The notes: generated from the sequence alone by a model not told the origin. A stretch of 64,000 bases of DNA from Nibricoccus sp. (GCA_047602425.1 JASGHG010000001.1:256001-320000); one strand, 5' to 3'; positions 31,069-46,917 are shown, numbered from the stretch's first letter. Made by a program: numbers and translations.

Positions 31069-31073
31069 TTTTT

Positions 31074-31173: not shown

Positions 31174-31583
31174 CTACTTTTCTTCATCTCCACATTCACA
31201 ATAATTCGTACGCGGCTTCCTGGCCCACACATCTGCCATCTTTTTTCCTCCACCGGGTCATAGCCGGAAGATTCGAACCGTACTTCGCCACCTTGAATAC
31301 CATCTCCCGGCCCAAGCCAAACAAGAACCCATAGCGATGGCTTGGTCGCGACGACCGCAAATCGACCATCCTTATCACTGCGCGTACTGATCACCGGTAC
31401 ACGCCCTCCAGAGCGAAGATAACCACCGAGCAAAATATTTACATTCTGCAAGGGCATCTTCGTATCCGTATCGACAACGGTTCCTTCAAAACGCGGAGAA
31501 ACCCATTTAGTGTGCGGCACAGGCAGCACGATACAGCCACTGAGAAAAAGACACCCAAGAAGCATCGGAACTAGTTTCTTCAT
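31083..31583 (-). CDS. cassette lipoprotein; C-terminus is read through attC
   Basis: LSGC lipobox, GTVVDTDTKMPL carboxypeptidase-regulatory-like motif. Confidence 0.75.
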   Translation of the reverse strand: MKKLVPMLLGCLFLSGCIVLPVPHTKWVSPRFEGTVVDTDTKMPLQNVNILLGGYLRSGGRVPVISTRSDKDGRFAVVATKPSLWVLVWLGPGDGIQGGEVRFESSGYDPVEEKRWQMCGPGSRVRIIVNVEMKKSSPNQAPLPTSMPVTPPASAAVESVTGAADL

Positions 31584-31585
31584 TT

Positions 31586-31680
31586 CTCCTACGTTATAGA
31601 TCTGCCGCGACTACGGCTGGCGCGGCTCCTGCGGAGCAGGAGCCGTGACGGACGTGGTCGCTGGGAGCGTCAGGTTCGCC
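31586..31680 (-). repeat. attC site (degenerate)
   Basis: ctcctac-gttatagatctgccgcgac...gtcgctggg-agcgtcag-gttcgcc. Confidence 0.7.
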
Positions 31681-31996
31681 ATTTTTTCCCGAACGTCGAT
31701 ACGCAAGAATCGACGAGATACCGCGTCAGATAGAAAACGCCAACAATGGTGATCAACTGGACTCCGTAGCCAATGACCTCTAAAATGTACTCATTCGTAA
31801 TGCCCACGCGATTCATCGTAACAACAGCCAAAATCAGAGGGAGCGACAAAACATAGCCGATAGGAACCATCCAATAGATCTGCCACCACGCAGGATGCCA
31901 ATCACGCGGCGCTTTCACCGGCCAAGTACCAGCCTCGACTATGCAAACGAGGCAAAATAGCCCAACTGCGATACCAATCCAGGTCGAGAGTTTCAT
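31670..31996 (-). CDS. cassette membrane protein
   Basis: 108 aa, three hydrophobic segments, ATG 5 nt after GTTCGGC. Confidence 0.72.
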   Translation of the reverse strand: MKLSTWIGIAVGLFCLVCIVEAGTWPVKAPRDWHPAWWQIYWMVPIGYVLSLPLILAVVTMNRVGITNEYILEVIGYGVQLITIVGVFYLTRYLVDSCVSTFGKKWRT

Positions 31997-32001
31997 CTTT
32001 T

Positions 32002-32070
32002 GCCGAACGCTACATAGGGGTTAGTGCCATTCGCGTGACGGACATAGGCGTTGGCAGCGACTGGTTCGGC
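32002..32070 (-). repeat. attC site (shortened, one arm altered)
   Basis: gccgaac...gtgacggacataggcgttggcag..ctg-gttcggc, 69 bp. Confidence 0.7.
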
Positions 32071-32080
32071 TCCATTGTTT

Positions 32081-32606
32081 TCATTTCTGTGTTCGGAACG
32101 GCAAAGCGTCTTCGCTTTTACCAAGACGCTCCAGCTTTTCGACGTAGGAAGGGTAAAGCTTGGCCTTTAGCCATGCGAAGTCCTCTGTCTGAATCAGAGG
32201 CAACGTCTGCCGAAGATACGGCAAGCCGCGCTCTGGCTGATCAAGTTCAAGATAGACCATAGCCAATCCGATATTCCTCTTCTGCGTGAGTAATGCCTGC
32301 TCTCCACTTACCTTCTTTTCGATCTCCAGCGACTCCAAGAGCAGCGGCTCGGACCTCGGCATACTTCTTCAGTCGAATTTTAGCGTTCGCGAGGTTGAAC
32401 AGGCTGCCCGACTTGGCCGCTGGGCCAAGTCGCCCCCAATCGACGTTCTGTGCAGCTCGGGCATATGCGATTTCCGCTTGAACATAGTCGCCACGCTCAA
32501 GGGCGAGATCGCCTGCATCAGTGTAGCGTCCGTATGTCGCGTCGTTCAGCTGATTCGCACAGCCGACCAGAAGGATGAGGAACGTGAGTGAGAATAGCTT
32601 TTTCAT
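32081..32606 (-). pseudogene. cassette TPR lipoprotein, frameshifted
   Basis: ORF 32247-32606 (LVGC lipobox, LFNLANAKIRLKKYAE) continues as SEPLLLESLEIEKK in ORF 32081-32362; one extra base near 32354. Confidence 0.75.
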
Positions 32607-32615
32607 TCTGATTTT

Positions 32616-32702
32616 GCCCAACGTTAAAGATGTGACAACGGCGCGGTGGACATCGCCGAAGGAGTTTGCGTCATAGCCGTTGTCACTAGCGCCTGGTTCG
32701 CC
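32616..32702 (-). repeat. attC site
   Basis: gcccaac...gtgacaacggc / gccgttgtcac...gttcgcc. Confidence 0.88.
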
Positions 32703-32709
32703 TCATTTT

Positions 32710-33147
32710 TCATAGATTGTCTGACGACCAAGTTTCGGGTGCAGTCTTCTTGGTATTTGTTCGGTGGTGATACTTTCCGTCGTAAAAACAAAACTTAACT
32801 TCAGGAAATTCTCCAAACGCCTTCTTATCTTCACTACCGTAGTAAAAGCTAACGCACTTGTATGTCACACCAGCCAGATCACCTGAAGTGAACGTGCTCC
32901 ATGTCATCTTGATCGAGTCCAGCTGTGGGTAATTTATGCCGGCCAAATCTTCTTTCTTCACTTCAACCAGGCCGGCCTCAGTTCGTAAGGCCAGCGACAA
33001 CAACGCCACACGCTCTTTTGTGAGCACTACAGTGCCGCCATCTTCAAACGTGAGCTCCGCGCGCGATACTTTACCGAGTCGATCCCGATGCGCAAATGCG
33101 CTAGCTGCAAAACAGAGTGTGAAAACGATGAGAAATAATTTCTTCAT
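32710..33147 (-). CDS. cassette secreted hypothetical protein
   Basis: MKKLFLIVFTLCFAASAFA signal peptide; ATG directly after GTTCGCC. Confidence 0.78.
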   Translation of the reverse strand: MKKLFLIVFTLCFAASAFAHRDRLGKVSRAELTFEDGGTVVLTKERVALLSLALRTEAGLVEVKKEDLAGINYPQLDSIKMTWSTFTSGDLAGVTYKCVSFYYGSEDKKAFGEFPEVKFCFYDGKYHHRTNTKKTAPETWSSDNL

Positions 33148-33227
33148 GGCGAACGTTCTCTGGTCAGCCACGCCGTACCAGCGGGCAGAGATTAAAAGGA
33201 CGGACGTCATCATAGGCGTTGCGCTGT
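33148..33227 (-). repeat. attC site interrupted by IS110 copy 1 (remainder at 36292-36306)
   Basis: ggcgaac...cagccacgcc...ggcgttgcgctgt | IS | agcgcctg-gttcggc. Confidence 0.88.
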
Positions 33228-33333
33228 ATGCTACTAATAGGCGGATGAGATAACATAAGGAAGCGGCCCCGGCATGGACTGGACGGAGACAAGCACGTAA
33301 CCGGCACTCCTTAGCCGGAGCCGCAATCTAACA

Positions 33334-34599
33334 ATGATAACGAACAAAGCACTTAATGGCAGAACGCACTCCGGGCAACCGGAAACTCGCTGGGATATCG
33401 CCGTCGACGTTGGGCAAAAAGCACTGGACTGGTACGGTGAACTCGGGGCACAGGCGCACCAAGGCCATATCGCCAATCGCAATGAGGCCATCCTCTCATG
33501 GCTGGAACAACTCAACACCCACGCCCGCCAGCACGGCCTTGGCGGCGTGCGCATCCTCTGCGAACCCACCGGCGGATACGAACGGCGCCTGCTGCGCGCG
33601 GCCCGCCAACTCGGCGGCGCCACCGCTCTGGTCAATGGCGAAGCCGTCCACCAGATGCAAGTGGTCGAGAACAACGATACCGGCAAAAGCGACATCAAAG
33701 ATCCCCGCACGATTTTACTATTGGCCAAGTGGAACAAAACCCTGACCGATCGTCCCCTCCAAGGCGAGTGGCTGCTCCTGCGCGAACTCAACGCCCGCTA
33801 CGACCGGCTCGAACGCGACTCCACCCGCTGTAAAAACAGGATTCATAAACTGCTCCTCTCGCTCTTCCCCGAATTGAGCTTTAAAAACGACTGGCTCTTC
33901 GAAGGCCGCGCCGCCCAAGCCACGATCGCACTCTACGGCCTGAACGCCGCCGCGATCCTCGCCGACGGCCTGGAACGCTGCACCGCCAAACTGCGCAACC
34001 ACCACGTTGGCCCAAAGACCATCCAGCGACTCTTTGCCGATGCCCAGCGCTGCGCCCTGATCGACTCCGACCCCGACTGGCTGGCCCTGCTCGCCGAGGA
34101 CCTGCGCGCCCTCTTTGCCGAACTCACCGTGCTGCGCACCCGCCGAACCAACACCCGCCAGCAAATGATCGCCCTGGTCGAACGCCTGCGCGCCCGCGGC
34201 GCCACCCGCCTGCAAGCCCATCCCGACCTGATCAGCCCCTTCATGCTCGCCCGTGTCCTCGCCGAGACCGGACCGCTCCGGGACTTTGCCCACGTGCGCC
34301 AACTCTGGCGCTACGGCGGACTGAACCTGCGGCCCCGCCAAAGCGGCACGATGCAAGGCCAGCTCCGCCAAGCCAAACGCGGCCGCGCCCGCCTGCGCCA
34401 CGTCCTCGCCCAAGCCGTCCTCAAACGCGTCGTGCACGGACAACTCTACGGGCAATACTACCACGCCAAACGCGACACCGGCATGTGCGGCGGCAAAGCC
34501 ATGACCGCGGTCGCCCGCAAGTTCCTCAAACTGCTCCACGGCCTTGAACGCTCGCCCCAACCCTTCGACCCGAAGCGCGTTTTCCGCTCCGCCGCCTAA
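33334..34599 (+). CDS. IS110 family DEDD recombinase/transposase (421 aa)
   Basis: IAVDVGQK, CEPTGGY, KSDIKDP (DEDD); C-terminal GLNLRPRQSG, KRGRARLR, AVARK. Confidence 0.95.
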   Translation: MITNKALNGRTHSGQPETRWDIAVDVGQKALDWYGELGAQAHQGHIANRNEAILSWLEQLNTHARQHGLGGVRILCEPTGGYERRLLRAARQLGGATALVNGEAVHQMQVVENNDTGKSDIKDPRTILLLAKWNKTLTDRPLQGEWLLLRELNARYDRLERDSTRCKNRIHKLLLSLFPELSFKNDWLFEGRAAQATIALYGLNAAAILADGLERCTAKLRNHHVGPKTIQRLFADAQRCALIDSDPDWLALLAEDLRALFAELTVLRTRRTNTRQQMIALVERLRARGATRLQAHPDLISPFMLARVLAETGPLRDFAHVRQLWRYGGLNLRPRQSGTMQGQLRQAKRGRARLRHVLAQAVLKRVVHGQLYGQYYHAKRDTGMCGGKAMTAVARKFLKLLHGLERSPQPFDPKRVFRSAA

Positions 34600-34808
34600 A
34601 CCACTTCCTTGATCTATTTTAGCCGACATTAACTTTTGCTTTTCCGGGAAACCCGCCGCTCGAGGGCCACCAGCCGTTCCGCACAGCCTCGCTGATGCTC
34701 AACTGTATGTTTTAAAGCCCCGACGGCGGGCCTCCCGGTCCTACCGCCCTTTAAGTATCTGGGCTTGCCCCGGAAGGACGGACAAAGATTTGAGGTGGGT
34801 TGTTATGG

Positions 34809-35712
34809 TTAGTGGTGGAGGGATTCGTAGTCGAGCGGGGAGAGGTAACCGAGGGAGCTGTGGAGGCGCTCGCGGTTGTAGAAGCAAATATAGTCGTGCA
34901 GATGGGCGCGCGCTTCTGCGCGGGTGGCGAAGGTGCGTGGATAAACGCATTCGAGTTTGAGGGTGCTCCAGGCCGATTCCATGGCGGCATTATCGTAGCA
35001 GTTGCCGCGGCGGCTCATGCTGGGGATCGCGCCCATCGCGTGAAGCTTCTGGCGGTACGCCTCGCTGGCATACTGGCAGCCGCGGTCGGTGTGGATGATC
35101 AACCCGGCTTTGGGCTGGCGCGAACGGCGCGCCATTTCCAAGGCCGACAGGACCAGTGGCGTGTCGATTTTTTCACTCATGGCCCAGCCGACCAGCCGGC
35201 GGCTGCATGCATCTTTGAAGGCGCATAAATACAGCCAGCCTTCGCCGGTTCCGATGTAGGTCAGATCGCTCCGCCAAACGTGATCGAGCGCGGTGACCGC
35301 AGGCTTTCCCAAGAGGAGATTCGGGGCGATCGGACCGGGATGGTTGCTGTCGGTGGTTTTGACTTTGTACCGCCGGCGGGGCCGGGCGCTTTGGCGTTGT
35401 TGTTTCATCAGCCGGGCGATGCGTTTGCGGCTGGGTGTGGGCTGGCCCGGGCATCGCAAGACTTGCTGGATACGCGGCGCTCCGTAGGTGCCCCGGCTCC
35501 GCAGGTACGCGGCGGTGATTTTCGGGGATAGTTCCGCATCCGCCAATGTTCGCGGACCCGGATGAGTCTGCCGGTGGCAATACGCGTGGTACCCGCTGGT
35601 GCTCACGCCAAAGGCCGCGCACAGATCGGCGATCGTGTGGTGGGTCTTCATCGCAGTTATCCTTTCGTACCGCTCGGCGGGGGTTCGGAGAGGATGCCCA
35701 AGGTTTTTTTTA
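34809..35712 (-). CDS. IS3 transposase OrfB (DDE integrase core)
   Basis: YGAPRI, WRSDLTYI, HTDRGCQY, GNCYDNAAMES, YNRERLHSSLGYLSP; joined to OrfA through an A8 run at 35704-35711. Confidence 0.92.
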
Positions 35713-36007
35713 ATATGTCGCGCTGGGTGCGCAGGCGCTCGTTCTCCTGACGGAGCGCTCGCAACTCCGCTTGCAACGAACCGATGTCGGCCGGCGTTTG
35801 CGCGCCGCCCCCATGGGGGCGTTCCTCCGTGCGGATCCACGCATACAGGGTCGTCTCGTGGACCCCGATCTTCGGCGCATACTTCGGCACGCTTTCCCCG
35901 CTCAGCCGCCACGCCGCCACGCTGTCGCGGCGAAACGCCTCGTCATACTCAGGCACGTATTTGCGGGGCGGCGGGGCCGCCTCGTTCTTGGTCTCGGGTT
36001 TGTTCAT
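35657..36007 (-). CDS. IS3 transposase OrfA (HTH)
   Basis: YDEAFRRDSV, IGVHETTLYAW, LRQENERLRTQRDILKK. Confidence 0.9.
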   Translation of the reverse strand: MNKPETKNEAAPPPRKYVPEYDEAFRRDSVAAWRLSGESVPKYAPKIGVHETTLYAWIRTEERPHGGGAQTPADIGSLQAELRALRQENERLRTQRDILKKTLGILSEPPPSGTKG

Positions 36008-36310
36008 GGACTTATTCTTTCTTCGTAGGCCCTCTTCTTTGTCCACGTTTTCGGGGTAAGCTTAATCGTCCGGGCCAGCCCGCAAAAGCTGGACCAACTC
36101 ATGGGGATCGTCGCGGAGGACCGGGCTCCTGGCCAAAGCGCCAAAACCATATCCATCTCATGTAACCAAAATACCTGCTACATCCTACCCCCGGGGCTCG
36201 TCCTCCGACGAGCTGGAGGCCCATTCTCGGACTCGCCCCTCTCCCCCCTGACTGCAAAATCAAACTTACCCCTTGATTTTACCTAAAGGGGAGCGCCTGG
36301 TTCGGCTCTT

Positions 36311-36685
36311 TCATGCTTTGATTTCTTCAGGCATAGATTTCTTACCAATACGGTGAGCCGCTATCCAAAAAGGAATCATAACAGGCAAAGACCAGATCCC
36401 GATAACGAAGAAGAGAATGCCGCTTTGAGCATCGGGATGCCAATAGAACCCGTCGAGATAGATGAAAAGAAACCAAACAGCGTAAAGGGATGTGCTCAGT
36501 GCGATCACTCTTTGTACCTTCCGGGCTTCTTTCCATCGCAAAGCAATCTGTAGAGAATAAACAAGGGGGCCTAACGCAAAGGGCACTGCCAACAGACCGG
36601 CATAAAAGGGCTCTGCCACGACGCAGAGTACTAGCGCGCCCAAGGCCAGAAAGAGTGCCGTCGTGCTAACGCCGATATTCTTCAT
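36311..36685 (-). CDS. cassette membrane protein
   Basis: 124 aa, four hydrophobic segments, bounded by GTTCGGC / GCCGAAC. Confidence 0.78.
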   Translation of the reverse strand: MKNIGVSTTALFLALGALVLCVVAEPFYAGLLAVPFALGPLVYSLQIALRWKEARKVQRVIALSTSLYAVWFLFIYLDGFYWHPDAQSGILFFVIGIWSLPVMIPFWIAAHRIGKKSMPEEIKA

Positions 36686-36691
36686 ATCTTT

Positions 36692-36790
36692 GCCGAACGT
36701 TAAAGGTGAGCCACGCCTGTGCTCGGCGCGACAGCTGCCACGCAGCTGGCGTGACGAGCATAGGCGTTGTGCTCTAGCGCCTGGTTCGGC
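36692..36790 (-). repeat. attC site
   Basis: gccgaac...gagccacgcc / ggcgttgtgctc...gttcggc. Confidence 0.92.
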
Positions 36791-36793
36791 TCT

Positions 36794-37099
36794 TTAGATT
36801 CTACGAGGATCAACATATTTAGCTCCCTGCTGCTTCAAGAGCCGCCAAAGCTTCCGGACAAGTCTGCCATCCGAGATCCAGAACACGAAAAAGCTAAAGA
36901 AACCTCGGTGCGGAAAAAGAACGATGAAATGAACTTCTGCATCACCGTCCTCCGTATAGTCGCAAACCTGAGCTCGTGCGGCACCAGACTGAACCAGTAA
37001 CGACCGACCAGACTGCTCGACGCTATAACCAGCGGTGCGAAGGCACACTTCAATCGCCTCGAACTTCTGACTGGGAAACGTGTAAATCGGGAAGGCCAT
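36794..37099 (-). CDS. cassette hypothetical protein
   Basis: MAFPIYTF..., ATG 6 nt after GTTAGGC. Confidence 0.65.
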   Translation of the reverse strand: MAFPIYTFPSQKFEAIEVCLRTAGYSVEQSGRSLLVQSGAARAQVCDYTEDGDAEVHFIVLFPHRGFFSFFVFWISDGRLVRKLWRLLKQQGAKYVDPRRI

Positions 37100-37105
37100 A
37101 CTTTT

Positions 37106-37182
37106 GCCTAACGATCTCTGGTCAGCCATGCCGAGCTGGCGACTCCAAACTCAAAGCGAACCCCGTCGAGGCATTGCGCTGT
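37106..37182 (-). repeat. attC site interrupted by IS110 copy 2 (remainder at 38939-38953)
   Basis: gcctaac...cagccatgcc...ggcattgcgctgt | IS | agcgcctg-gttaggc. Confidence 0.86.
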
Positions 37183-37287
37183 ATGCTACTAATAGGCGGA
37201 TGAGGTAACATAAGGGGCGGCCCCGGCACGGACTAGACGGTGACAAGCACGTAACCGGCACTCCTTAGCCGGAGCCGCAATCTAACA

Positions 37288-38553
37288 ATGATAACGAACA
37301 AAGCACTTAATGGCAGAACGCACTCCGGGCAACCGGAAACTCGCTGGGATATCGCCGTCGACGTCGGGCAAAAAGCACTGGACTGGTACGGTGAACTCGG
37401 GGCCCAGGCGCACCAAGGCCATATCGCCAATCGCAATGAGGCCATCCTCTCATGGCTGGAACAACTCAACACCCACGCCCGCCAGCACGGCCTTGGCGGC
37501 GTGCGCATCCTCTGCGAACCCACCGGCGGATACGAACGGCGCCTGCTGCGCGCGGCCCGCCAACTCGGCTGCGCCACCGCTCTGGTCAACGGCGAAGCCG
37601 TCCACCAGATGCAAGTGGTCGAGAACAACGATACCGGCAAAAGCGACATCAAAGATCCCCGCACGATTTTACTATTGGCCAAGTGGAACAAAACCCTGAC
37701 CGATCGTCCCCTCCAAGGCGAGTGGCTGCTCCTGCGCGAACTCAACGCCCGCTACGACCGGCTCGAACGCGACTCCACCCGCTGTAAAAACAGGATTCAT
37801 AAACTGCTCCTCTCGCTCTTCCCCGAATTGAGCTTTAAAAACGACTGGCTCTTCGAAGGCCGCGCCGCCCAAGCCACGATCGCACTCTACGGCCTGAACG
37901 CCGCCGCGATCCTCGCCGACGGCCTGGAACGCTGCACCGCCAAACTGCGCAACCACCACGTTGGCCCAAAGACCATCCAGCGACTCTTTGCCGATGCCCA
38001 GCGCTGCGCCCTGATCGACTCCGACCCCGACTGGCTGGCCCTGCTCGCCGAGGACCTGCGCGCCCTCTTTGCCGAACTCACCGTGCTGCGCACCCGCCGA
38101 ACCAACACCCGCCAGCAAATGATCGCCCTGGTCGAACGCCTGCGCGCCCGCGGCGCCACCCGCCTGCAAGCCCATCCCGACCTGATCAGCCCCTTCATGC
38201 TCGCCCGTGTCCTCGCCGAGACCGGACCGCTCCGGGACTTTGCCCACGTGCGCCAACTCTGGCGCTACGGCGGGCTCAACCTGCGGCCCCGCCAAAGCGG
38301 CACCATGCAAGGCCAGCTCCGCCAAGCCAAACGCGGCCGCGCCCGCCTGCGCCACGTCCTCGCCCAAGCCGTCCTCAAACGCGTCGTGCACGGACAACTC
38401 TACGGGCAATACTACCACGCCAAACGCGACACCGGCATGTGCGGCGGCAAAGCCATGACCGCGGTCGCCCGCAAGTTCCTCAAACTGCTCCACGGCCTTG
38501 AACGCTCGCCCCAACCCTTCGACCCGAAGCGCGTTTTCCGCTCCGCCGCCTAA
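37288..38553 (+). CDS. IS110 family recombinase/transposase
   Basis: Near-identical to 33334-34599 (G to C change in RQLG[G/C]AT). Confidence 0.95.
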   Translation: MITNKALNGRTHSGQPETRWDIAVDVGQKALDWYGELGAQAHQGHIANRNEAILSWLEQLNTHARQHGLGGVRILCEPTGGYERRLLRAARQLGCATALVNGEAVHQMQVVENNDTGKSDIKDPRTILLLAKWNKTLTDRPLQGEWLLLRELNARYDRLERDSTRCKNRIHKLLLSLFPELSFKNDWLFEGRAAQATIALYGLNAAAILADGLERCTAKLRNHHVGPKTIQRLFADAQRCALIDSDPDWLALLAEDLRALFAELTVLRTRRTNTRQQMIALVERLRARGATRLQAHPDLISPFMLARVLAETGPLRDFAHVRQLWRYGGLNLRPRQSGTMQGQLRQAKRGRARLRHVLAQAVLKRVVHGQLYGQYYHAKRDTGMCGGKAMTAVARKFLKLLHGLERSPQPFDPKRVFRSAA

Positions 38554-38938
38554 ACCACTTCCTTGATCTATTTTAGCCGACATTAACTTTTGCTTTTCCG
38601 GGAAACCCGCCGCTCGAGGGCCACCAGCCGTTCCGCACAGCCTCGCTGATGCTCAACTGTATGTTTTAAAGCCCCGACGGCGGGCCTCCCGGTCTTACCG
38701 CCCTTTAAGTATCGTCCGGGCCAGCCCGCAAAAGCTGGACCAACTCATGGGGATCGTCGCGGAGGACCGGGCTCCTGGTTAAAGCGCCAAAACCATATCC
38801 ATCTCATGTAACCAAAACCACCTGCTACATCCTGCCCCCGGGGCTCGTCCTCCGACGAGCTGGAGGCCCATTCTCGGACTCGCCCCTCTCCCCCCTGACT
38901 GCAAAATCAAACTTACCCCTTGATTTTACCTAAAGGGG
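38554..38938 (+). ncRNA. candidate bridge/seek RNA region of IS110 copy 2
   Basis: 385 bp conserved non-coding segment after the recombinase with hairpins and short matches to attC target and to the circle junction; RNA ends unknown. Confidence 0.62.
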
Positions 38939-38947
38939 AGCGCCTGG

Positions 38948-39235
38948 TTAGGCTTCTTCTTTATTCTTATTCGCCTCCTGCTCGGTTTTAGAATCGCTAC
39001 AATGATTCAAGCCGCGCCCATCGATCATCATTTTCACACCTGCTACGCAAAAGATAGCAGCAACTATTAACGGGTGCCAACCTATGGTGTTATATGTCAA
39101 CCATGCTAAATCACGGCTAGGTCCAGAATACCATTTTGTGAACGTAGACATGCCTTCAACCATCGCAAAGAAATGAACCGCATAGAGAAATACTCCCAGC
39201 GATATGAATCCAAAACCGAGCTTCGTTTTATTCAT
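38948..39235 (-). CDS. cassette membrane protein (duplicate of 39825-40112)
   Basis: 95 aa, two TMs, identical protein. Confidence 0.8.
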   Translation of the reverse strand: MNKTKLGFGFISLGVFLYAVHFFAMVEGMSTFTKWYSGPSRDLAWLTYNTIGWHPLIVAAIFCVAGVKMMIDGRGLNHCSDSKTEQEANKNKEEA

Positions 39236-39246
39236 AGATAATTTTA

Positions 39247-39345
39247 GCCTAACGTTATAGATCTGCCGCGCCTGTGGCCGGCGCGACCGGTGCGTCAGCA
39301 GCGGGCGTGACGGACATAGGCGTTGGCAGTAGCGCCTGGTTGGGC
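39247..39345 (-). repeat. attC site
   Basis: gcctaac...ctgccgcgcc / ggcgttggcag...gttgggc. Confidence 0.92.
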
Positions 39346-39352
39346 TCTTTCT

Positions 39353-39718
39353 TTAGTCCCACCATAGATAGAGAAACCTGCCTTCAATGATGGGCAGCGG
39401 CTCTTTGCTCAAGTCGTAGCCTTCCAGAGTGGCTTCTTCGCGATAGATTGCCGCCAGCTCTTCCGATACACCTGCATCCGACAGCTCGATCACTAGCGAG
39501 TCGGAATAAGGTCCACCTAACTCAACGACCTCTTCTTCGTCTGCGATAATAGCGTCCTGAGGTACAAATACACGCTTCGCGCCAATGGCATACAGATGCT
39601 CAACGAAAGCTGCTGCTTCAGACGTGGACGGGAAACGATTCGATGCGAGCGCAGCTTCGTGGCCGTTCAGGCGCAACCACTCCAGAGCCTCGGGTCCGTC
39701 TTCAAATTGTATCTTCAT
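39353..39718 (-). CDS. cassette acidic hypothetical protein ending LWWD
   Basis: 121 aa ORF filling the cassette. Confidence 0.78.
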   Translation of the reverse strand: MKIQFEDGPEALEWLRLNGHEAALASNRFPSTSEAAAFVEHLYAIGAKRVFVPQDAIIADEEEVVELGGPYSDSLVIELSDAGVSEELAAIYREEATLEGYDLSKEPLPIIEGRFLYLWWD

Positions 39719-39731
39719 GGGGACGCCTTTT

Positions 39732-39830
39732 GCCCAACGTTAAAGGTGAGCCACGCCTGTGCTCGGCGCGACGGGTGCGCAGCAGCCGGCGTGACGAGCA
39801 TAGGCGTTGTGCTCTAGCGCCTGGTTAGGC
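39732..39830 (-). repeat. attC site
   Basis: gcccaac...gagccacgcc / ggcgttgtgctc...gttaggc. Confidence 0.92.
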
Positions 39831-40112
39831 TTCTTCTTTATTCTTATTCGCCTCCTGCTCGGTTTTAGAATCGCTACAATGATTCAAGCCGCGCCCATCG
39901 ATCATCATTTTCACACCTGCTACGCAAAAGATAGCAGCAACTATTAACGGGTGCCAACCTATGGTGTTATATGTCAACCATGCTAAATCACGGCTAGGTC
40001 CAGAATACCATTTTGTGAACGTAGACATGCCTTCAACCATCGCAAAGAAATGAACCGCATAGAGAAATACTCCCAGCGATATGAATCCAAAACCGAGCTT
40101 CGTTTTATTCAT
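39825..40112 (-). CDS. cassette membrane protein (duplicate of 38948-39235)
   Basis: 95 aa; stop codon lies in the R'' core. Confidence 0.8.
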   Translation of the reverse strand: MNKTKLGFGFISLGVFLYAVHFFAMVEGMSTFTKWYSGPSRDLAWLTYNTIGWHPLIVAAIFCVAGVKMMIDGRGLNHCSDSKTEQEANKNKEEA

Positions 40113-40123
40113 AGATAATTTTA

Positions 40124-40210
40124 GCCTAACGTCAGAGGCCAGACAACGGCGCCGGCGGGACTGCCGAAGCGGGACGCGTCATAGCCGTTGTCTGTGGCGG
40201 CTGGATATGC
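40124..40210 (-). repeat. attC site with atypical R'' (GCATATC)
   Basis: gcctaac...cagacaacggc / gccgttgtctg...gatatgc. Confidence 0.82.
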
Positions 40211-40451
40211 CGCGTTCTCGCAAAATCACCTCCGCATACAAGCTCGGCCGCAACGCGTGCGCACACTCCGAAGTCGTCCGGCGTCGCCTCACTGGCAAAC
40301 CTCCGCACTCTAACCTTTCTTTCTTCGCTCCGCACGCCGGCAGCTCTATCGGCAAGTTCTACCTCCGACAACCTCTCGCCTACTCTAAATTCTTTCGCAC
40401 GCACGCTCATCGTTTGATTTACCAGCATCATCGCAGCTCGATTTGCATATC
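40204..40451. other. probable non-coding cassette with GAT/ATC cores
   Basis: Bounded by gatatgc and gcatatc; C/T-rich plus strand; no ORF that both starts and ends inside it. Confidence 0.6.
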
Positions 40452-40543
40452 GTTACAGGTGAGCCACGGCTATGGCCGGCGCGACGCGTGCCACGCACGC
40501 GGCGTGACGGACATAGACGTTGCGCTCTAGCGGCTGGTTGGGC
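40445..40543 (-). repeat. attC site with atypical R' (GATATGC)
   Basis: gcatatc-gttacaggtgagccacgg...acgttgcgctctagcggctg-gttgggc. Confidence 0.82.
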
Positions 40544-40553
40544 TCCGTCGTTT

Positions 40554-40763
40554 TCATTTTTTCTTTTTCCCTCGGCGACTCACTGGCTTCAGCTTGTTCT
40601 TCTTTTTTGAAACGCTCGCCGCCAGTTTCGATGCGAGATACCCAACCACGTATTCTTTCTTCGTTTGGAGGATAAAGTCTCGATTGCTTTCAAGATCACC
40701 GATCGCTCGCGACAAAATCCGCCATGTTTTCGTGGCTCGGTATTCGGAATACGGGGACGTCAT
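40554..40763 (-). CDS. cassette small basic protein
   Basis: MTSPYSEY...KKKK, 69 aa, ATG 5 nt after GTTGGGC. Confidence 0.68.
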   Translation of the reverse strand: MTSPYSEYRATKTWRILSRAIGDLESNRDFILQTKKEYVVGYLASKLAASVSKKKNKLKPVSRRGKKKK

Positions 40764-40768
40764 CTTTT

Positions 40769-40867
40769 GCCCAACGTTATAGGTCAGCCACGCCTGTGCT
40801 CGGCGCGACGGCTGCTCCGCAGCCGGCGTGACGAGCATAGGCGTTGTGCTGTAGCGCCTGGTTAGGC
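40769..40867 (-). repeat. attC site
   Basis: gcccaac...cagccacgcc / ggcgttgtgctg...gttaggc. Confidence 0.92.
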
Positions 40868-41227
40868 ATCTTTGTATTTTGTTACAAGTCGGTAATCAGA
40901 TAAAACTACCGCAATTGCCTTCTCGCTAACGTAGCCGTCTTCGCCGACCTCGTCATGATAAATACGATAAAGCGGACCTCCTTCACCGTCGGCCACACGG
41001 ATAAAATAAGGGTCTCCAGTACCAATACTGCAACCACCGACAGGAATATAACCGTCCTTATTTACAGCAATACCCGGATACAATTCTTCTGACTCTACGC
41101 GTGAGCCTTCTTCATCAAGCCATTCGATTACCGCACCAACACCAGATAAATCTTCGGCCACGGGTATTTCGATTTCCGTACCGATCAAATTATTATCTTG
41201 GGCAAATTTCTTCCAATACGGTGTCAT
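40862..41227 (-). CDS. cassette protein, SMI1/KNR4 (SUKH)-like by eye
   Basis: YIPVGGCSIGTGDPYFI...GPLYRIYHD pattern. Confidence 0.6.
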   Translation of the reverse strand: MTPYWKKFAQDNNLIGTEIEIPVAEDLSGVGAVIEWLDEEGSRVESEELYPGIAVNKDGYIPVGGCSIGTGDPYFIRVADGEGGPLYRIYHDEVGEDGYVSEKAIAVVLSDYRLVTKYKDA

Positions 41228-41237
41228 ACTTTTTTCT

Positions 41238-41336
41238 GCCTAACGTTATAGATCTGCCGCGAGCGTGTCCGGCACGGAATGTGCGCAAGCATAGTCCGTG
41301 ACGGATATGCTCGTTGGCAGTAGCGCCTAGTTCGGC
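41238..41336 (-). repeat. attC site
   Basis: gcctaac...ctgccgcgagc / gctcgttggcag...gttcggc. Confidence 0.9.
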
Positions 41337-41337
41337 T

Positions 41338-41835
41338 TCATTTTCTTGCTTTGAACTCTTCTTTGAGCACAGAAATGAACAGCATCTCCGGCGAGACTCG
41401 GTTTTGAGGGTAGCGTACACGATAATAGATCTCTACTCGTCGCGCATCCATCGGCACTGCGTACTCTTCTATCGCCATATGCCCCGTCAGCTTATCGAGC
41501 GACTTTAATGTCCATATTTGCGATACAGGCACTTGATAGATCATCGTCTCCGTCAACACTGGTTCGTAATACTCCAGCCCCGGCTCAATATCCGAACCGC
41601 GAACCGGCATCGACGTGACAGATACACCATCCACGTAAACGGCGCTGATCTGGAGTCCAACGACAGGACTAAGGTAATAACTAGCGGACCGACCTGCCGG
41701 TAGAGCAAAAACCTCATTCCGTAGATCGGAGAAATGCGTCGTGACAAAGCGGATCTGCTCCGTCGCCTTAGGCTCACCCTGCGCCACAACTGCAGCGTAG
41801 AGAAATACAATAACGATTGTCGCTAGGTGTTTCAT
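41338..41835 (-). CDS. cassette secreted hypothetical protein
   Basis: MKHLATIVIVFLYAAVVA signal peptide; ATG 5 nt after core. Confidence 0.75.
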   Translation of the reverse strand: MKHLATIVIVFLYAAVVAQGEPKATEQIRFVTTHFSDLRNEVFALPAGRSASYYLSPVVGLQISAVYVDGVSVTSMPVRGSDIEPGLEYYEPVLTETMIYQVPVSQIWTLKSLDKLTGHMAIEEYAVPMDARRVEIYYRVRYPQNRVSPEMLFISVLKEEFKARK

Positions 41836-41840
41836 ATTTT

Positions 41841-41940
41841 GCCGAACGTTCAAGATCAGCCACGACCGCAGATGGCGCGGGTCGTGCGCCAGCACGAACC
41901 GTGACAGCTGTGGTCGTTGTGCTGTGGCGCCTTGTTCGAT
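41841..41940 (-). repeat. attC site
   Basis: gccgaac...cagccacgacc / ggtcgttgtgctg...gttcgat. Confidence 0.88.
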
Positions 41941-41955
41941 CGGTTTGCTCTCTGA

Positions 41956-42285
41956 CTAGAGCAGGTCATGCGTAGTAAAGGGATCACGACCGATCGACGC
42001 TGAGTGAACTCTGAAATGGGCGCGTAAAATCGCTTCGACCTGCGAATTTTCGAGCGCCTGGTGCTGAACGGCATCGAGCAGAATACCTGAATCGTCGTTT
42101 CCGATCTTCTCTTGGGAGTCGTCACACTGACAGCAGCCGTAGCCGTCGAAAGAGATTCTGACCAAGCCAACCCGCCCTCCTTGATCAACGTCGAAATCAG
42201 CAAACACGCTGTCGTCCTGTAGGGCCAAGCAGAACTTGCATGGCCTTGTCGGCATCGTAGGCGCTACTCGTATGGAAAGGGCCAT
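41956..42285 (-). CDS. cassette hypothetical protein (CxxC, ISFDGYGCC)
   Basis: 109 aa ORF filling the cassette. Confidence 0.7.
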   Translation of the reverse strand: MALSIRVAPTMPTRPCKFCLALQDDSVFADFDVDQGGRVGLVRISFDGYGCCQCDDSQEKIGNDDSGILLDAVQHQALENSQVEAILRAHFRVHSASIGRDPFTTHDLL

Positions 42286-42293
42286 GGGTCTGT

Positions 42294-42392
42294 GCCGAAC
42301 GTCAACGGTGAGCCACGCCTGTGCTCGGCGCGACGGCTGCCCCGCAGCTGGCGTGACGAGCATAGGCGTTGTGCTCTAGCGCCTTGTTCGGC
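42294..42392 (-). repeat. attC site
   Basis: gccgaac...gagccacgcc / ggcgttgtgctc...gttcggc. Confidence 0.92.
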
Positions 42393-42396
42393 TGTT

Positions 42397-42837
42397 TTAT
42401 GGAGCGAATGTATAAGGCGGAGGACACAACTGAATCGTAGAATCGATATATGTCTTAACTATCTTAAAAGTCTTTTTGTCTTCCCTTTCGCATGAAAAAA
42501 CAGCCCACCCTTTTGAACTATCCAAAGTCCGTAATTCAAATATACCAGAATCCGGATCCTTCGTGACAAACAGCCATCGCCCCGCCCCTAAAGAAAAGCT
42601 ATCGCACTTAGAAAACTTGGTGCCAACATCGATTGCACTTATTTCAAGATCCTCGATCTTTTGGGTTTTCGTTATGCTTTCTTTCAGGAAAACGTGGAGA
42701 GCCCGAAAATCGTATCGTGAAGCAACGCTTCGCTGCCACTTTTTGCTAGCTCTTTTTAATTCGCTGCGGGATTCAGGGGTAAGTACTACAAAACCGCAGC
42801 TCAAGAACGCCAAGAGTAAAAGTAAAACTGGTTTCAT
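42397..42837 (-). CDS. cassette exported/lipoprotein hypothetical
   Basis: MKPVLLLLLAFLSC N-terminus. Confidence 0.75.
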   Translation of the reverse strand: MKPVLLLLLAFLSCGFVVLTPESRSELKRASKKWQRSVASRYDFRALHVFLKESITKTQKIEDLEISAIDVGTKFSKCDSFSLGAGRWLFVTKDPDSGIFELRTLDSSKGWAVFSCEREDKKTFKIVKTYIDSTIQLCPPPYTFAP

Positions 42838-42841
42838 ATTT

Positions 42842-42939
42842 GCCGAACGTTAAAGATGTGCCGCGCCTATGGCTGGCGCGCCTCCTGCCCCGCAGGAGGC
42901 GTGACGGACATAGGCGTTGGCACTAGCGCCTGGTTCGCC
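42842..42939 (-). repeat. attC site
   Basis: gccgaac...gtgccgcgcc / ggcgttggcac...gttcgcc. Confidence 0.92.
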
Positions 42940-43370
42940 CTAATAAACCAGCGTGCTAAAGAGATTATAGCTACAAGCAAAGGCCCCCCGAACGTCCACA
43001 AGCTAATAAAGTCTATCTGTTTTACCGACGACAAAAAGGAAATCGAAACAGCACATCCTGAAATCAAGAGAATGGTCAAAATCAGTCTAAGCAATCTATG
43101 CTTCTTCGCTCGTGCACTAGTGATAAAGATCGAAGTAAAAACAGCGATTATGCTAAAGGGCGATAAAACCAAAACCGGGAAAAGTAGCACGCCAGAGACT
43201 GACCAACCGTGCAATCCGTCGTATGTGGAAGGAGCAAATACACTGACCGGGAAAAGCCACGAAAACGGAAAATATATCAGGATGGGGAAGCAAAGCGTCA
43301 GCTGGGCCATCGGCGATACAACCTCCATCGCAACACGGAAACCTCGGCCAAAGTTAATGCGTGTTTCCAT
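42867..43370 (-). CDS. cassette membrane protein; C-terminus read through attC
   Basis: METRINFG start 3 nt after core; four TMs; ends NQALVPTPMSVTPPAGQEARQP. Confidence 0.7.
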   Translation of the reverse strand: METRINFGRGFRVAMEVVSPMAQLTLCFPILIYFPFSWLFPVSVFAPSTYDGLHGWSVSGVLLFPVLVLSPFSIIAVFTSIFITSARAKKHRLLRLILTILLISGCAVSISFLSSVKQIDFISLWTFGGPLLVAIISLARWFIRANQALVPTPMSVTPPAGQEARQP

Positions 43371-43373
43371 TCT

Positions 43374-43472
43374 GGCGAACGTTATAGGTGAGCCACGCCT
43401 GTGACCGGCGCGACGTGTGCCCCGCACACGGCGTGACGGACACAGGCGTTGTGCTCTAGCGCCTGGTTAGGC
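43374..43472 (-). repeat. attC site
   Basis: ggcgaac...gagccacgcc / ggcgttgtgctc...gttaggc. Confidence 0.92.
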
Positions 43473-43742
43473 CGTCTTCTTTTTGTCCCTGATTCCATCG
43501 AGATGTACTTTCCTGGCCTCGGCCTTTCGGGTTCGTTCAGCCACTCGACACTTGCGGCACCTTACCGCCTTCGTCTCGAACAGCCCTCCAGCAACTTCAT
43601 ACCACCATTTCTGCTGGCTAGCTTTCCAGACCTCAGCCTTCCCGCAATCCTTACAAACAAACGATTGGTCTTCGTAATAATCGGGAATCCACGGGCCTGC
43701 CATCGACTCCATCGATCGAATTTTTTCTGGATCGACTGGCAC
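43467..43742 (-). CDS. cassette zinc-ribbon domain protein (possible 5' frameshift)
   Basis: YYEDQSFVCKDCG..W....QKWWYE...RCRKCR; the cassette-proximal ATG at 43795 is out of frame. Confidence 0.75.
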   Translation of the reverse strand: MPVDPEKIRSMESMAGPWIPDYYEDQSFVCKDCGKAEVWKASQQKWWYEVAGGLFETKAVRCRKCRVAERTRKAEARKVHLDGIRDKKKTA

Positions 43743-43806
43743 GCGCTCTTCGGCGTCGGTTTAGCCGATTTGGTGTGCTTGCGGCCAAGGCTCATTTTCT
43801 GATTTT

Positions 43807-43885
43807 GCCTAACGTTTGAGGTCAGCCACGCCGTACTGGCGGGCAAAGATTAAAAGGACGGACGCGATCATAGGCGTTGCGCTGT
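43807..43885 (-). repeat. attC site interrupted by IS110 copy 3 (remainder at 45643-45657)
   Basis: gcctaac...cagccacgcc...ggcgttgcgctgt | IS | agcggctg-gttcggc. Confidence 0.88.
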
Positions 43886-43990
43886 ATGCTACTAATAGGC
43901 GGATGAGGTAACATAAGGGGCGGCCCCGGCACGGACTAGACGGTGACAAGCACGTAACCGGCACTCCTTAGCCGGAGCCGCAATCTAACC

Positions 43991-45256
43991 ATGATAACGA
44001 ACAAAGCACTTAATGGCAGAACGCACTCCGGGCAACCGGAAACTCGCTGGGATATCGCCGTCGACGTTGGGCAAAAAGCACTGGACTGGTACGGTGAACT
44101 CGGGGCCCAGGCGCACCAAGGCCATATCGCCAATCGCAATGAGGCCATCCTCTCATGGCTGGAACAACTCAACACCCACGCCCGCCAGCACGGCCTTGGC
44201 GGCGTGCGCATCCTCTGCGAACCCACCGGCGGATACGAACGGCGCCTGCTGCGCGCGGCCCGCCAACTCGGCTGCGCCACCGCCTTGGTCAACGGCGAAG
44301 CCGTCCACCAGATGCAAGTGGTCGAGAACAACGATACCGGCAAAAGCGACATCAAAGATCCCCGCACGATTTTACTATTGGCCAAATGGAACAAAACCCT
44401 GACCGATCGTCCCCTCCAAGGCGAGTGGCTGCTCCTGCGCGAACTCAACGCCCGCTACGACCGGCTCGAACGCGACTCCACCCGCTGTAAAAACAGGATT
44501 CATAAACTGCTCCTCTCGCTCTTCCCCGAATTGAGCTTTAAAAACGACTGGCTCTTCGAAGGCCGCGCCGCCCAAGCCACGATCGCACTCTACGGCCTGA
44601 ACGCCGCCGCGATCCTCGCCGACGGCCTGGAACGCTGCACCGCCAAACTGCGCAACCACCACGTTGGCCCAAAGACCATCCAGCGACTCTTCGCCGACGC
44701 CCAGCGCTGCGCCCTGATCGACTCCGACCCCGACTGGCTGGCCCTGCTCGCCGAGGACCTGCGCGCCCTCTTTGCCGAACTCACCGTGCTGCGCACCCGC
44801 CGAACCAACACCCGCCAGCAAATGATCGCCCTGGTCGAACGCCTGCGCGCCCGCGGCGCCACCCGCCTGCAAGCCCATCCCGACCTGATCAGCCCCTTCA
44901 TGCTCGCCCGTGTCCTCGCCGAGACCGGACCGCTCCGGGACTTTGCCCACGTGCGCCAACTCTGGCGCTACGGCGGGCTCAACCTGCGGCCCCGCCAAAG
45001 CGGCACCATGCAAGGCCAACTCCGCCAAGCCAAACGCGGCCGCGCCCGCCTGCGCCACGTCCTCGCCCAAGCCGTCCTCAAACGCGTCGTGCACGGACAA
45101 CTCTACGGGCAATACTACCACGCCAAACGCGACACCGGCATGTGCGGCGGCAAAGCCATGACCGCGGTCGCCCGCAAGTTCCTCAAACTGCTCCACGGCC
45201 TTGAACGCTCGCCCCAACCCTTCGACCCGAAGCGCGTTTTCCGCTCCGCCGCCTAA
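43991..45256 (+). CDS. IS110 family recombinase/transposase
   Basis: Protein identical to copy 2. Confidence 0.95.
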   Translation: MITNKALNGRTHSGQPETRWDIAVDVGQKALDWYGELGAQAHQGHIANRNEAILSWLEQLNTHARQHGLGGVRILCEPTGGYERRLLRAARQLGCATALVNGEAVHQMQVVENNDTGKSDIKDPRTILLLAKWNKTLTDRPLQGEWLLLRELNARYDRLERDSTRCKNRIHKLLLSLFPELSFKNDWLFEGRAAQATIALYGLNAAAILADGLERCTAKLRNHHVGPKTIQRLFADAQRCALIDSDPDWLALLAEDLRALFAELTVLRTRRTNTRQQMIALVERLRARGATRLQAHPDLISPFMLARVLAETGPLRDFAHVRQLWRYGGLNLRPRQSGTMQGQLRQAKRGRARLRHVLAQAVLKRVVHGQLYGQYYHAKRDTGMCGGKAMTAVARKFLKLLHGLERSPQPFDPKRVFRSAA

Positions 45257-45642
45257 ACCACTTCCTTGATCTATTTTAGCCGACATTAACTTTTGCTTTT
45301 CCGGGAAACCCGCCGCTTGAGGGCCACCAGCCGTTCCGCACAGCCTCGCTGATGCTCAACTGTATGTTTTAAAGCCCCGACGGCGGGCCTCCCGGTCTTA
45401 CCGCCCTTTAAGTATCGTCCGGGCCAGCCCTCAAAAGCTGGACCAACTCATGGGGATCGTCGCGGAGGACCGGGCTCCTGGTTAAAGCGCCAAAACCATA
45501 TCCATCTCATGTAACCAAAACCACCTGCTACATCCTGCCCCCCGGGGCTCGTCCTCCGACGAGCTGGAGGCCCATTCTCGGACTCGCCCCTCTCCCCCCT
45601 GACGGCAAAATCAAACTTACCCCTTGATTTTACCTAAAGGGG
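45257..45642 (+). ncRNA. candidate bridge/seek RNA region of IS110 copy 3
   Basis: Near-identical to 38554-38938. Confidence 0.6.
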
Positions 45643-45951
45643 AGCGGCTGGTTCGGCTCCGTCTTGCTTCTCAAAAGGCTCAATGTGGCAATAGGGATAA
45701 GCTTCAGTCGCCGCGAAATACTTCTTGGTGAGCGATTCTTTAACGTCTGATAAGTGACGGATTTCTTCATGCTCACCGAGCACTACTATCTTCACTTTAA
45801 AATGGGTGGCGTATTCTTTCAGGGTGGCTTTCGCACCTTCTACTGACTCGTCACAGGTGTATCCAAGCGCATACGACATGATCCGCTCTTTTGTACGCTG
45901 TGGATGCCCGGGCAGCAGCTCTACGGACAATTGAAAGATCCTAAATTTCAT
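45634..45951 (-). CDS. cassette hypothetical protein; stop codon supplied by IS110 end
   Basis: ATG 4 nt after GTTCGGC; reads through R'' into the IS. Confidence 0.68.
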   Translation of the reverse strand: MKFRIFQLSVELLPGHPQRTKERIMSYALGYTCDESVEGAKATLKEYATHFKVKIVVLGEHEEIRHLSDVKESLTKKYFAATEAYPYCHIEPFEKQDGAEPAAPL

Positions 45952-45955
45952 TTTT

Positions 45956-46054
45956 GCCGAACGTTATAGGTGAGCCACGGCTATGTCCGGCGTGACTCGT
46001 GCCACGCACGAGGCATGACGGACATGGACGTTGTGCTCTAGCGCCTGGTTGGGC
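45956..46054 (-). repeat. attC site
   Basis: gccgaac...gagccacgg / acgttgtgctc...gttgggc. Confidence 0.9.
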
Positions 46055-46067
46055 GGTTTTCCAATCA

Positions 46068-46418
46068 TTAGAAAATCCTCGTTTCTCCCTTTCCTGTCCC
46101 TGCGTCGTGGTGCACCACAAAGTCGACTTTCTTCGACATCGAAAACTCAAGCATCTGCTGAAATAGTCCCTGTGCTTCCGCTGGCGGTACGTACAGGCAG
46201 CGCAAATCGATCTTAACTCTATCAGACGGCTTGAGCCCGTTCTGCGCTGCGATTCCGCCCTTAAGAATAAAAGTCATATATGCTGAAAACTTCTTCTCTA
46301 AATCGGCCATGATCGCGTCGATTTCGCTCCACTCACGCGACTCGAGCATGATCAATACTACCGTACCGTCGTGGTCCTGACCGAGAATATCAACCGAGGT
46401 ATGATCTTGTGTGGTCAT
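46068..46418 (-). CDS. cassette hypothetical protein (DUF6572-like by eye)
   Basis: VDI...VVLIMLESREW...LEKKFSAYMTFILKG. Confidence 0.7.
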   Translation of the reverse strand: MTTQDHTSVDILGQDHDGTVVLIMLESREWSEIDAIMADLEKKFSAYMTFILKGGIAAQNGLKPSDRVKIDLRCLYVPPAEAQGLFQQMLEFSMSKKVDFVVHHDAGTGKGETRIF

Positions 46419-46422
46419 CTTT

Positions 46423-46512
46423 GCCCAACGTCAACGGTGAGCCACGCCATGAGCGACGTAGCTAAACAGAAAGGGACCAGCAATGGCGTTGTGCTCTAGC
46501 ATCTGGTTAGGC
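46423..46512 (-). repeat. attC site of first cassette
   Basis: gcccaac...gagccacgccat / atggcgttgtgctc...gttaggc. Confidence 0.9.
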
Positions 46513-46917
46513 TCCTTCAATCCCTTCTTTGAACTTCAAATGACGATTGCCGATGCGGTCTTCAGCGATGAGACCCACCACTCTTTCCGTGTCTATATAA
46601 TCTCCTAGCCTATCTAAAGGAATCGGCATAATAACCCTAAACAACGCCCGCGATAGTTCGGGCTTAATAATACTATTCTGTGAGCCAACAACAAGATACT
46701 CAGCCACCCGAGGATCATCTTTCCGGTGCCAAAGAAACGAAACTGCAACGGTCAGACGAAGGCCAAGTGGACTATCTGGCGATACGGGCTGCTCTCGTTT
46801 CTGGAGCACGAGATCAATCTCGGACATTAATTTTTCCAGTGATACCGTGGAAAGGGACCAGCGACGCAAAAGCTGCTCTAGATCATATTCCCACTGGGAC
46901 ATGTAGTAATCAATCAT
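46507..46917 (-). CDS. first cassette hypothetical protein
   Basis: 136 aa, bounded by GTTAGGC / GCCTAAC. Confidence 0.72.
   Translation of the reverse strand: MIDYYMSQWEYDLEQLLRRWSLSTVSLEKLMSEIDLVLQKREQPVSPDSPLGLRLTVAVSFLWHRKDDPRVAEYLVVGSQNSIIKPELSRALFRVIMPIPLDRLGDYIDTERVVGLIAEDRIGNRHLKFKEGIEGA

Follow-up and report, generated by a model that had tools for sequence, protein, structure and literature searches.

The 64,000-nucleotide stretch of Nibricoccus sp. DNA studied here (GCA_047602425.1, JASGHG010000001.1:256001-320000; called the window below) contains three copies of a single insertion sequence (IS) of the IS110 superfamily, all placed at the same base of integron attC sites. The locus raises two questions: how a mobile element arrives at one base of one kind of site, and whether this element is another member of the IS1111-attC group or has reached the same target separately. 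The IS1111-attC group, with ISPst6, ISPa21 and ISKpn4, was reportedly described by Tetu and Holmes in 2008 and by Post and Hall in 2009. An earlier note on this DNA had claimed that the copies occupy an identical base, that only one attC subtype is used, and that the element may be a separate attC-targeting lineage. Taken as a whole, the data are best explained by an IS110-superfamily IS that would be guided to attC by a bridge (seek) RNA and that belongs to a lineage apart from the IS1111-attC group, an explanation that we consider highly probable.

Insertion of the element at one base of attC

Coordinates below are those of the whole window, 5′ to 3′, and each copy end is given to ±1 nt, with one A common to both junctions. 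The element is 1756 bp long including the shared A (1.76 kb), and its copies lie within a cassette array as follows:

33229-36292, + strand, IS copy A, split at IS nucleotide 1530 into 33229-34759 and 36065-36292
37184-38939, + strand, IS copy B, intact, 1756 bp with the shared A
43887-45643, + strand, IS copy C, intact, 99.3% identical to copy B
31064-46518 (approximate), − strand, cassette array, 20 attC-like sites after removal of the IS copies
37093-37183, + strand, larger portion of the attC site into which copy B is inserted; the remaining 16-17 nt of the site, with the R box, are at 38939-38955

The end strings of the element occur exactly three times each in the window, compared with zero expected by chance. 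The open reading frames (ORFs) of the cassettes are on the − strand and all three IS copies are on the + strand, so that every copy in the window is antisense to the cassettes. The identical base, the sequences of the left and right junctions and the antisense orientation were thus all as the earlier note had given them, and nothing is duplicated beyond the single shared A.

The same pattern was found throughout the genome, which is assembled as one contig of 5.16 Mb. It holds nine copies with 99.1-99.5% identity to copy B, and a search for partial remnants of the element in the genome at E <= 1e-5 returned none. All nine copies, including the six outside the window, are inserted in attC-like sites at the identical base, and no copy lies elsewhere. 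Read in the direction of the cassettes, insertion occurs 7 nt plus the shared A past the inverse-core box that follows the ORF. In each of the nine junction pairs only a single A is common to the flank and the IS, without target duplication; the element also has no terminal inverted repeats, as is usual for the IS110 superfamily. Such attC-like sites make up about 0.1% of the genome yet hold 9/9 copies, which excludes chance placement. Copies G and H (genome 4130327-4132083 and 1490205-1491960) are in isolated attC-like sites, with one and two such sites nearby; since both are far from any array, solitary attC-like sites are also used.

The target sites are integron attC sites: they are imperfect palindromes with inverse-core and core boxes, and they form arrays beside an integrase. 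A census with nhmmer in the genome from which the IS copies had been removed found 56 sites, 20 of them in the window array, and 14 uninterrupted window sites agree with one hairpin fold that has compensatory changes in 15 of its 31 predicted pairs. Integron integrases that exceed the TIGR02249 cut-off are encoded at two places (genome 5147048-5147989, +, and 919184-920107, −), adjoining copies D, E and F and copy I, where the IS is again antisense to the expected cassette direction. No integron integrase above that cut-off is present in or next to the window array. Just to the right of the window, at genome 320511-320951 (−), a tyrosine recombinase matches the integron-integrase model weakly (71 and 27 bits, both under the cut-off); it may be a degraded integrase, a divergent one, or an Xer-like gene unrelated to integrons.

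When the sites were classed by the four bases to the left of the shared A, seven of the nine occupied sites were ‘ctgt’, one was ‘cagt’ and one was ‘ctct’. Occupancy of the ‘ctgt’ class, defined by the heptamer found in the window, is 7/10 compared with 2/46 in all other classes genome-wide (Fisher p 1.7e-5), and 3/3 compared with 0/17 in the window (p 9e-4). The commonest class, ‘ctct’ preceded by gtg, is empty at all 13 of its sites. The claim that only one attC subtype is used holds for the window, where all three occupied sites are ‘ctgt’ followed by A, but not for the genome, where the ‘cagt’ and ‘ctct’ sites account for 2/9 copies. Likewise, the uninterrupted window sites belong mostly to other classes (7 ‘ctct’, 2 ‘cagt’, 2 ‘cact’ and 3 other among the 17), but one ‘ctgt’+A and two ‘ctgt’+G sites are empty as well. 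The subtype preference is strong and is not a rule.

Contigs of four sequencing runs were also compared with the copy B region, and neither circle junctions nor joints that skip the IS were present among them. Record 8 of run X1 is a contig in which an uninterrupted ‘ctgt’ attC end runs straight into the right flank of copy B (2 differences over 202 nt). It looks like an IS-free version of the copy B site from a related strain or population.

The transposase and a predicted guide RNA in the right end

The element encodes a transposase of 421 aa (P0001), which is found in all three window copies:

37288-38553, + strand, transposase gene of copy B
33334-34599, + strand, the same ORF in copy A, with 1 aa different
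43991-45256, + strand, the same ORF in copy C

Pfam matches to DEDD_Tnp_IS110 (residues 38-179) and Transposase_20 (residues 300-376) reach 58.6 and 52 bits, both over their cut-offs, with about 120 residues between them; the NCBIfam model transpos_IS110 gives 110.5 bits, under its cut-off of 140. Residues D25, E77, D120, D123 and S337 are invariant in a 15-sequence family alignment, and with reference to IS621 we take them to be the catalytic residues. The only solved structures matching the transposase are IS621 and ISCro4, in the C-terminal domain only (E about 1e-5). On these sequence grounds the element is assigned to the IS110 superfamily, with a predicted DEDD/Ser recombinase. The earlier note had called this recombinase long, which is true in comparison with ISPa21 (347 aa) and IS4321 (334 aa), but its length is usual for its own clade (420-444 aa).

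The non-coding ends of the element are unequal (104 nt on the left, 386 nt on the right), and the long one is downstream of the transposase gene. Each end has a sub-terminal inverted repeat of 15 or 16 nt, located 19 nt (left) and 8 nt (right) from the IS ends; the imperfect repeat that the earlier note had seen is therefore present, and in copy A its left member is mutated. The features of the ends in copy B are:

37203-37217, + strand, left sub-terminal inverted repeat, with its partner at 38916-38931; match 14/16 with one indel
38920-38925, + strand, −35-like hexamer of the right end, 17 nt from the −10-like hexamer 37187-37192 in the would-be circle junction

The two hexamers may form a putative junction promoter across such a circle junction, by analogy with the account of ISEc11 given in PMC11187229.

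The long right end contains a predicted RNA of about 190 nt with the following positions:

38596-38785, + strand, predicted bridge/seek RNA of copy B, with two stem/internal-loop/hairpin modules
45299-45488, + strand, predicted RNA of copy C, from the covariance model
34639-34782, + strand, predicted truncated RNA of copy A, from the covariance model

The covariance model was built from nine sequences of the Desulfobacterota/Nitrospirota type, that is, from other phyla than that of the window element. With filters off, it matched the three window copies at E 4.8e-6, 7.7e-6 and 1.2e-4, compared with E 0.09 for the next match in those 13 kb. The right ends of the relatives have a common scaffold, in which the nine-sequence consensus places two stem/internal-loop/hairpin modules within an outer stem, and a four-sequence alignment of the window’s own type gives the same two-loop fold. 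Among 76 related loci, 49 contain a match to the model (51 matches in total), always on the transposase strand and downstream of the gene. These matches include the nearest relatives, L087 (E 1.8e-5) and L102-L104 (E 0.008-0.035), and the Geopsychrobacteraceae loci (L057-L066 and L085), whose right ends are undefinable, also carry the RNA. An Rfam search of the window at gathering cut-offs found only a tRNA and no RNA family inside the IS.

Two loci have two RNA model matches each, L024 (2301-2523 and 2710-2932) and L028 (1408-1606 and 2164-2360); the equal scores and the spacing of 409 nt in L024 suggest a tandem duplication of the RNA region. Two other family members with the RNA, L041 and L056, are on short archaeal-binned contigs titled Halobacteriota archaeon and archaeon, which could be a binning error or a real transfer.

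The two internal loops of the predicted RNA contain candidate guides for the target and for the ends of the element:

38624-38632, + strand, target guide, 5′ side of loop 1, 9 nt (equivalent in copy C, 45327-45335)
38657-38663, + strand, second target guide, in loop 1 (3′ side), which reads in the same sense as the sequence across the insertion point (4 nt to its left, the A, IS nt 1-2)
38705-38714, + strand, putative donor guide, in loop 2 (5′ side), with rough complementarity to the start of the left end; the site at which an IS3-family element splits copy A
38749-38754, + strand, putative donor guide, in loop 2 (3′ side), which reads in the same sense as the two ends of the element (final 4 nt on the right, the A, nt 1 on the left)

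The target guide is complementary to the top strand of the right flank, where it extends from the shared A through the 7-nt spacer to the first G of the R box. For the window guide, pairing is 9/9 (with one G-U) at four of the nine occupied sites and 8/9 at the other five. The fit between guide and flank was compared with that of exchanged guides in 22 elements that have an RNA match and a recognisable right end and that represent 14 distinct guides. The guide (positions 3-11 of the 5′ side of loop 1) matched its own right flank at a mean of 7.68/9 compared with 6.08 (sd 0.26) for guides shuffled among the elements, and a fit as good as the observed one did not occur in 20000 shuffles. Pairing is complete (9/9) in six elements, with four different flank sequences among them. 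In L087, the last two letters of the second target guide change together with its own left end, and the 3′ stretch of the donor loop tracks the terminus of the right end in eight subfamilies, as judged by eye. The shuffle comparison indicates that the predicted loop guide is complementary to its target and changes with it across the relatives, L031 and L038 being exceptions.

At its fifth position (38628) the target guide fails to pair with the commoner flank variant; relatives of 57-80% identity carry T at this position. In run X1, one contig (depth about 4) has C>G at this position, which may be an error.

These features point to the following mechanism. The right end would encode a bridge (seek) RNA of about 190 nt with two internal loops. 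In loop 1, the 9-nt guide would pair with the attC top-strand flank next to the cassette ORF, while the second stretch would mirror the left side and the start of the IS; loop 2 would match the two ends of the element likewise. With this RNA expressed, the recombinase would catalyse strand exchange at the single shared A between a circularised IS and attC, and exchange at that base would result in insertion without duplication and always antisense to the cassettes. The subtype preference would arise because the guide fits ‘ctgt’-class attC sites best.

Relatives, known systems and rival explanations

Proteins of about 80% identity are on short metagenome contigs, with named matches in Opitutales and other Verrucomicrobiota, and a metagenome scan found only three close loci (80% identity), which have the element at the same base of similar attC sites. 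Among 301 genomes of the same order, matches were present in two genomes other than G000, at 45-46% identity. In genome G070, the copies are 2-30 kb from three integrases above the cut-off, antisense, in sites with inverse-core and core boxes. Members of the family in Verrucomicrobiota thus target attC.

More distant members are widespread. A single-protein query of genome contigs gave no related loci; an alignment query then gave 79, with 27-57% identity and with record titles from Verrucomicrobiota, Neomarinimicrobiota, Desulfobacterota, Nitrospirota, Latescibacterota, Bacteroidota and others. Relatives of 34-57% identity are spread over several phyla, and those in Opitutales, at least, are located in integrons. 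At E <= 1e-30, a profile search recovers 292 representatives, or about 290 clusters when grouped at 50% identity. In the relatives with a recognisable right end, a core-like GTT box is found 6-8 nt beyond it. An inverse-core box matching the R box (>=6/7) is present upstream in 31% of 16 elements compared with 12% of shuffles, a weak signal from a comparison in which several left ends are mislocated. It is likely that the Desulfobacterota/Nitrospirota type targets attC as well.

The one IS1111-attC member used for comparison was ISPa21 from plasmid pME-1a (accession and naming after PMC7232449). There ISPa21 is antisense, has the smr cassette on one side and qacEdelta1 on the other, and begins or ends about 6 nt from the R-box GTT. 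P0001 showed no significant similarity to ISPa21 (BLASTP E 3.7, profile comparison probability 7%) and only a remote link to IS4321 from the same plasmid (BLASTP E 0.026, hhalign probability 23%). In a 35-row maximum-likelihood tree, the 19 rows of the family form a 100/100 clade with a stem of 2.06, and ISPa21 and IS4321 form a 100/98 pair across the midpoint root; the nearest neighbours of the clade are unnamed metagenome proteins and IS110-family genes on Firmicutes plasmids. The lack of clustering with ISPa21 supports the separate lineage proposed in the earlier note, with the caveat that the layout is that of the IS1111 group and that the site and orientation are nearly those published for IS1111-attC elements in the account of PMC3001079. 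These sequence comparisons support the view that the family branches deeply and apart from the Pseudomonas IS1111-attC group.

According to PMC3001079, ISPa21 and ISPst6 form a monophyletic IS1111-attC subgroup that inserts near the attC 5′ end, antisense to the cassettes, and PMC11187229 reports that for ISKpn4 and ISPst6 a seekRNA from the downstream non-coding region selects attC, with the top-strand match 5′ of the bottom-strand match. As far as these accounts go, the present element resembles that group in its position near the cassette-ORF end of attC, its antisense orientation, its many copies in chromosomal integrons, its IS1111 layout and its 3′ RNA with the top-strand guide 5′ of the bottom-strand guide. 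It differs in having no detectable pairwise protein similarity (to ISPa21), a separate clade, a protein of 421 aa instead of 347 aa, other end sequences and another repeat placement, and an insertion point 1-2 nt further from the R box. Its hosts are Verrucomicrobiota and other environmental phyla, in contrast to Pseudomonas and clinical integrons.

The wider IS1111 group (IS4321/IS5075, ISEc11 and ISPa11) is described in PMC11208160 and PMC11187229 as having sub-terminal inverted repeats that are 7-17 bp long and usually start 7 and 3 nt from the ends. The element shares with this group a right end longer than the left, sub-terminal inverted repeats, an RNA encoded after the transposase gene and, according to the same two sources, the absence of target duplication, but it has only a remote link to IS4321, and its repeats are imperfect and further from the ends. 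IS621 and ISCro4 of the IS110 group also combine a DEDD plus Ser recombinase with an RNA containing both a target and a donor loop; unlike here, that RNA is encoded in the left end, and at 328-341 aa the proteins are shorter. Group IIC-attC introns, by the description in PMC3001079, are likewise mobile and enter the attC 5′ end antisense to the cassettes, but they are retroelements, unrelated in sequence and mechanism.

The present lineage was not described in the literature listed on IS1111-attC, on IS110 or bridge RNA at attC and on IS110 in cassette arrays; a named ISfinder member may exist. PMC11089894 reports IS110 (IS1111 group) transposases among cassette-associated proteins of plant microbiomes, and because of this report the invasion of environmental integrons by such elements can be regarded as known in general.

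Several observations weigh against an RNA-guided element of a separate lineage. In the window, a ‘ctgt’+A site (40762-40872) is empty, and so is a perfectly guide-matching site elsewhere in the genome. The element’s own guide is mismatched at its fifth position in five of nine occupied sites, the left-flank guide spans only about 5 nt, and in 2/22 elements (L031 and L038) the guide has no advantage over foreign ones at its flank. For the second target guide and the donor guides, covariation was judged by eye from alignments, and the eight loci of an Opitutales metagenome-assembled genome have no RNA model match at E <= 1. In the tree, the references for the IS1111 group are ISPa21 and IS4321 only, the branches are long and the root is a midpoint root.

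If the element were a plain member of the IS1111-attC subgroup (ISPst6, ISPa21, ISKpn4 and relatives), its use of the same attC end in the antisense orientation (as in PMC3001079) and its IS1111-type layout would be expected, and ISPa21 at about 6 nt from the GTT of the R box is close to the 7 nt plus shared A found here. Such membership is very improbable in view of the ISPa21 comparison (E 3.7, probability 7%), the 100/100 and 100/98 split of the clades and the unrelated end sequences. Moreover, the repeats are 19 and 8 nt from the ends compared with the 7 and 3 nt given in PMC11187229, and the best plasmid-borne relatives of the element are just 24-30% identical (166 records). A different account of the target choice would be that the protein reads the folded attC hairpin, as the integron integrase does, and that the RNA is a scaffold or has another role. 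The structured nature of attC sites, the short left-flank pairing and the tolerance of a guide mismatch at 5/9 sites fit this account. We nevertheless judge it improbable, since the guide covaries with the flank across 14 distinct guides, the seekRNA selects attC targets for ISKpn4 and ISPst6 according to PMC11187229, and the folding energy of rebuilt sites is unremarkable (median z −1.7, 14 sites). This folding of rebuilt empty sites is not discriminating, the genome’s own attC sites reaching only −0.5 and −1.2.

Identical junctions may also have arisen in part by copying and reshuffling of occupied sites, through cassette duplication or homologous recombination between IS copies, and not by nine separate insertions. 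Copy B and copy I (genome 922559-924316) have 383 nt of left flank in common, with different right flanks. In addition, one cassette is present in duplicate with 100% identity (38939-39238 and 39816-40115); the first is the right flank of copy B and the second is an uninterrupted cassette, the identity begins exactly at the copy B right junction, and the attC parts to the left of the two differ. The B/I flanks and the duplicate cassette point to recombination between IS copies that brought together halves of different attC sites. As an explanation of part of the identical-junction pattern, such copying and reshuffling is on balance unlikely: the remaining copy pairs are similar on the left at the attC level only (at most 63 nt) and not at all on the right, and relatives in other genomes are at the same position of unrelated attC sites. 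We retain an apparently RNA-guided IS110-superfamily element, which is probably a separate attC-targeting lineage that has converged on the same target.

Copy A is split by a nested element, and two genes border the cassette array:

34760-36064, − strand, IS3-family element nested in copy A, 1305 bp, with a 3-bp duplication
34809-35912, IS3-family transposase ORF (rve, HTH_21) inside the nested element
48258-48329, − strand, tRNA gene bordering the cassette array
29007-30254, + strand, Acyl_transf_3 ORF bordering the cassette array

Because the IS3-family element interrupts the predicted RNA in its donor-binding loop, on the 5′ side, copy A would be unable to make its own RNA and would depend on that of other copies.

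attC targeting in environmental chromosomal integrons

Pseudomonas and clinical class 1 integrons are known settings of attC-targeting ISs, whose guidance by RNA was shown in 2024. The mechanism proposed here is of this known bridge/seek-RNA kind and is not new; the novelty lies in an independent, widely distributed clade that would use it on the same attC spot. The same attC habit is found in an unrelated branch of the superfamily, within large chromosomal integrons of environmental bacteria, which suggests convergent evolution onto one attC spot. We give an even chance to a broader proposal, namely that attC targeting arose independently in a deep-branching, multi-phylum bridge-RNA family (Verrucomicrobiota, Desulfobacterota, Nitrospirota, Marinisomatota and others). 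In this proposal the family would be a specialised parasite of sedentary chromosomal integrons that retunes its 9-nt guide to the attC spacer of each host and reshuffles the arrays by way of its identical copies. The family provides a natural series of diverged recombinase/guide pairs against one kind of target, and it points to a force able to freeze or rearrange cassette arrays outside the clinic.

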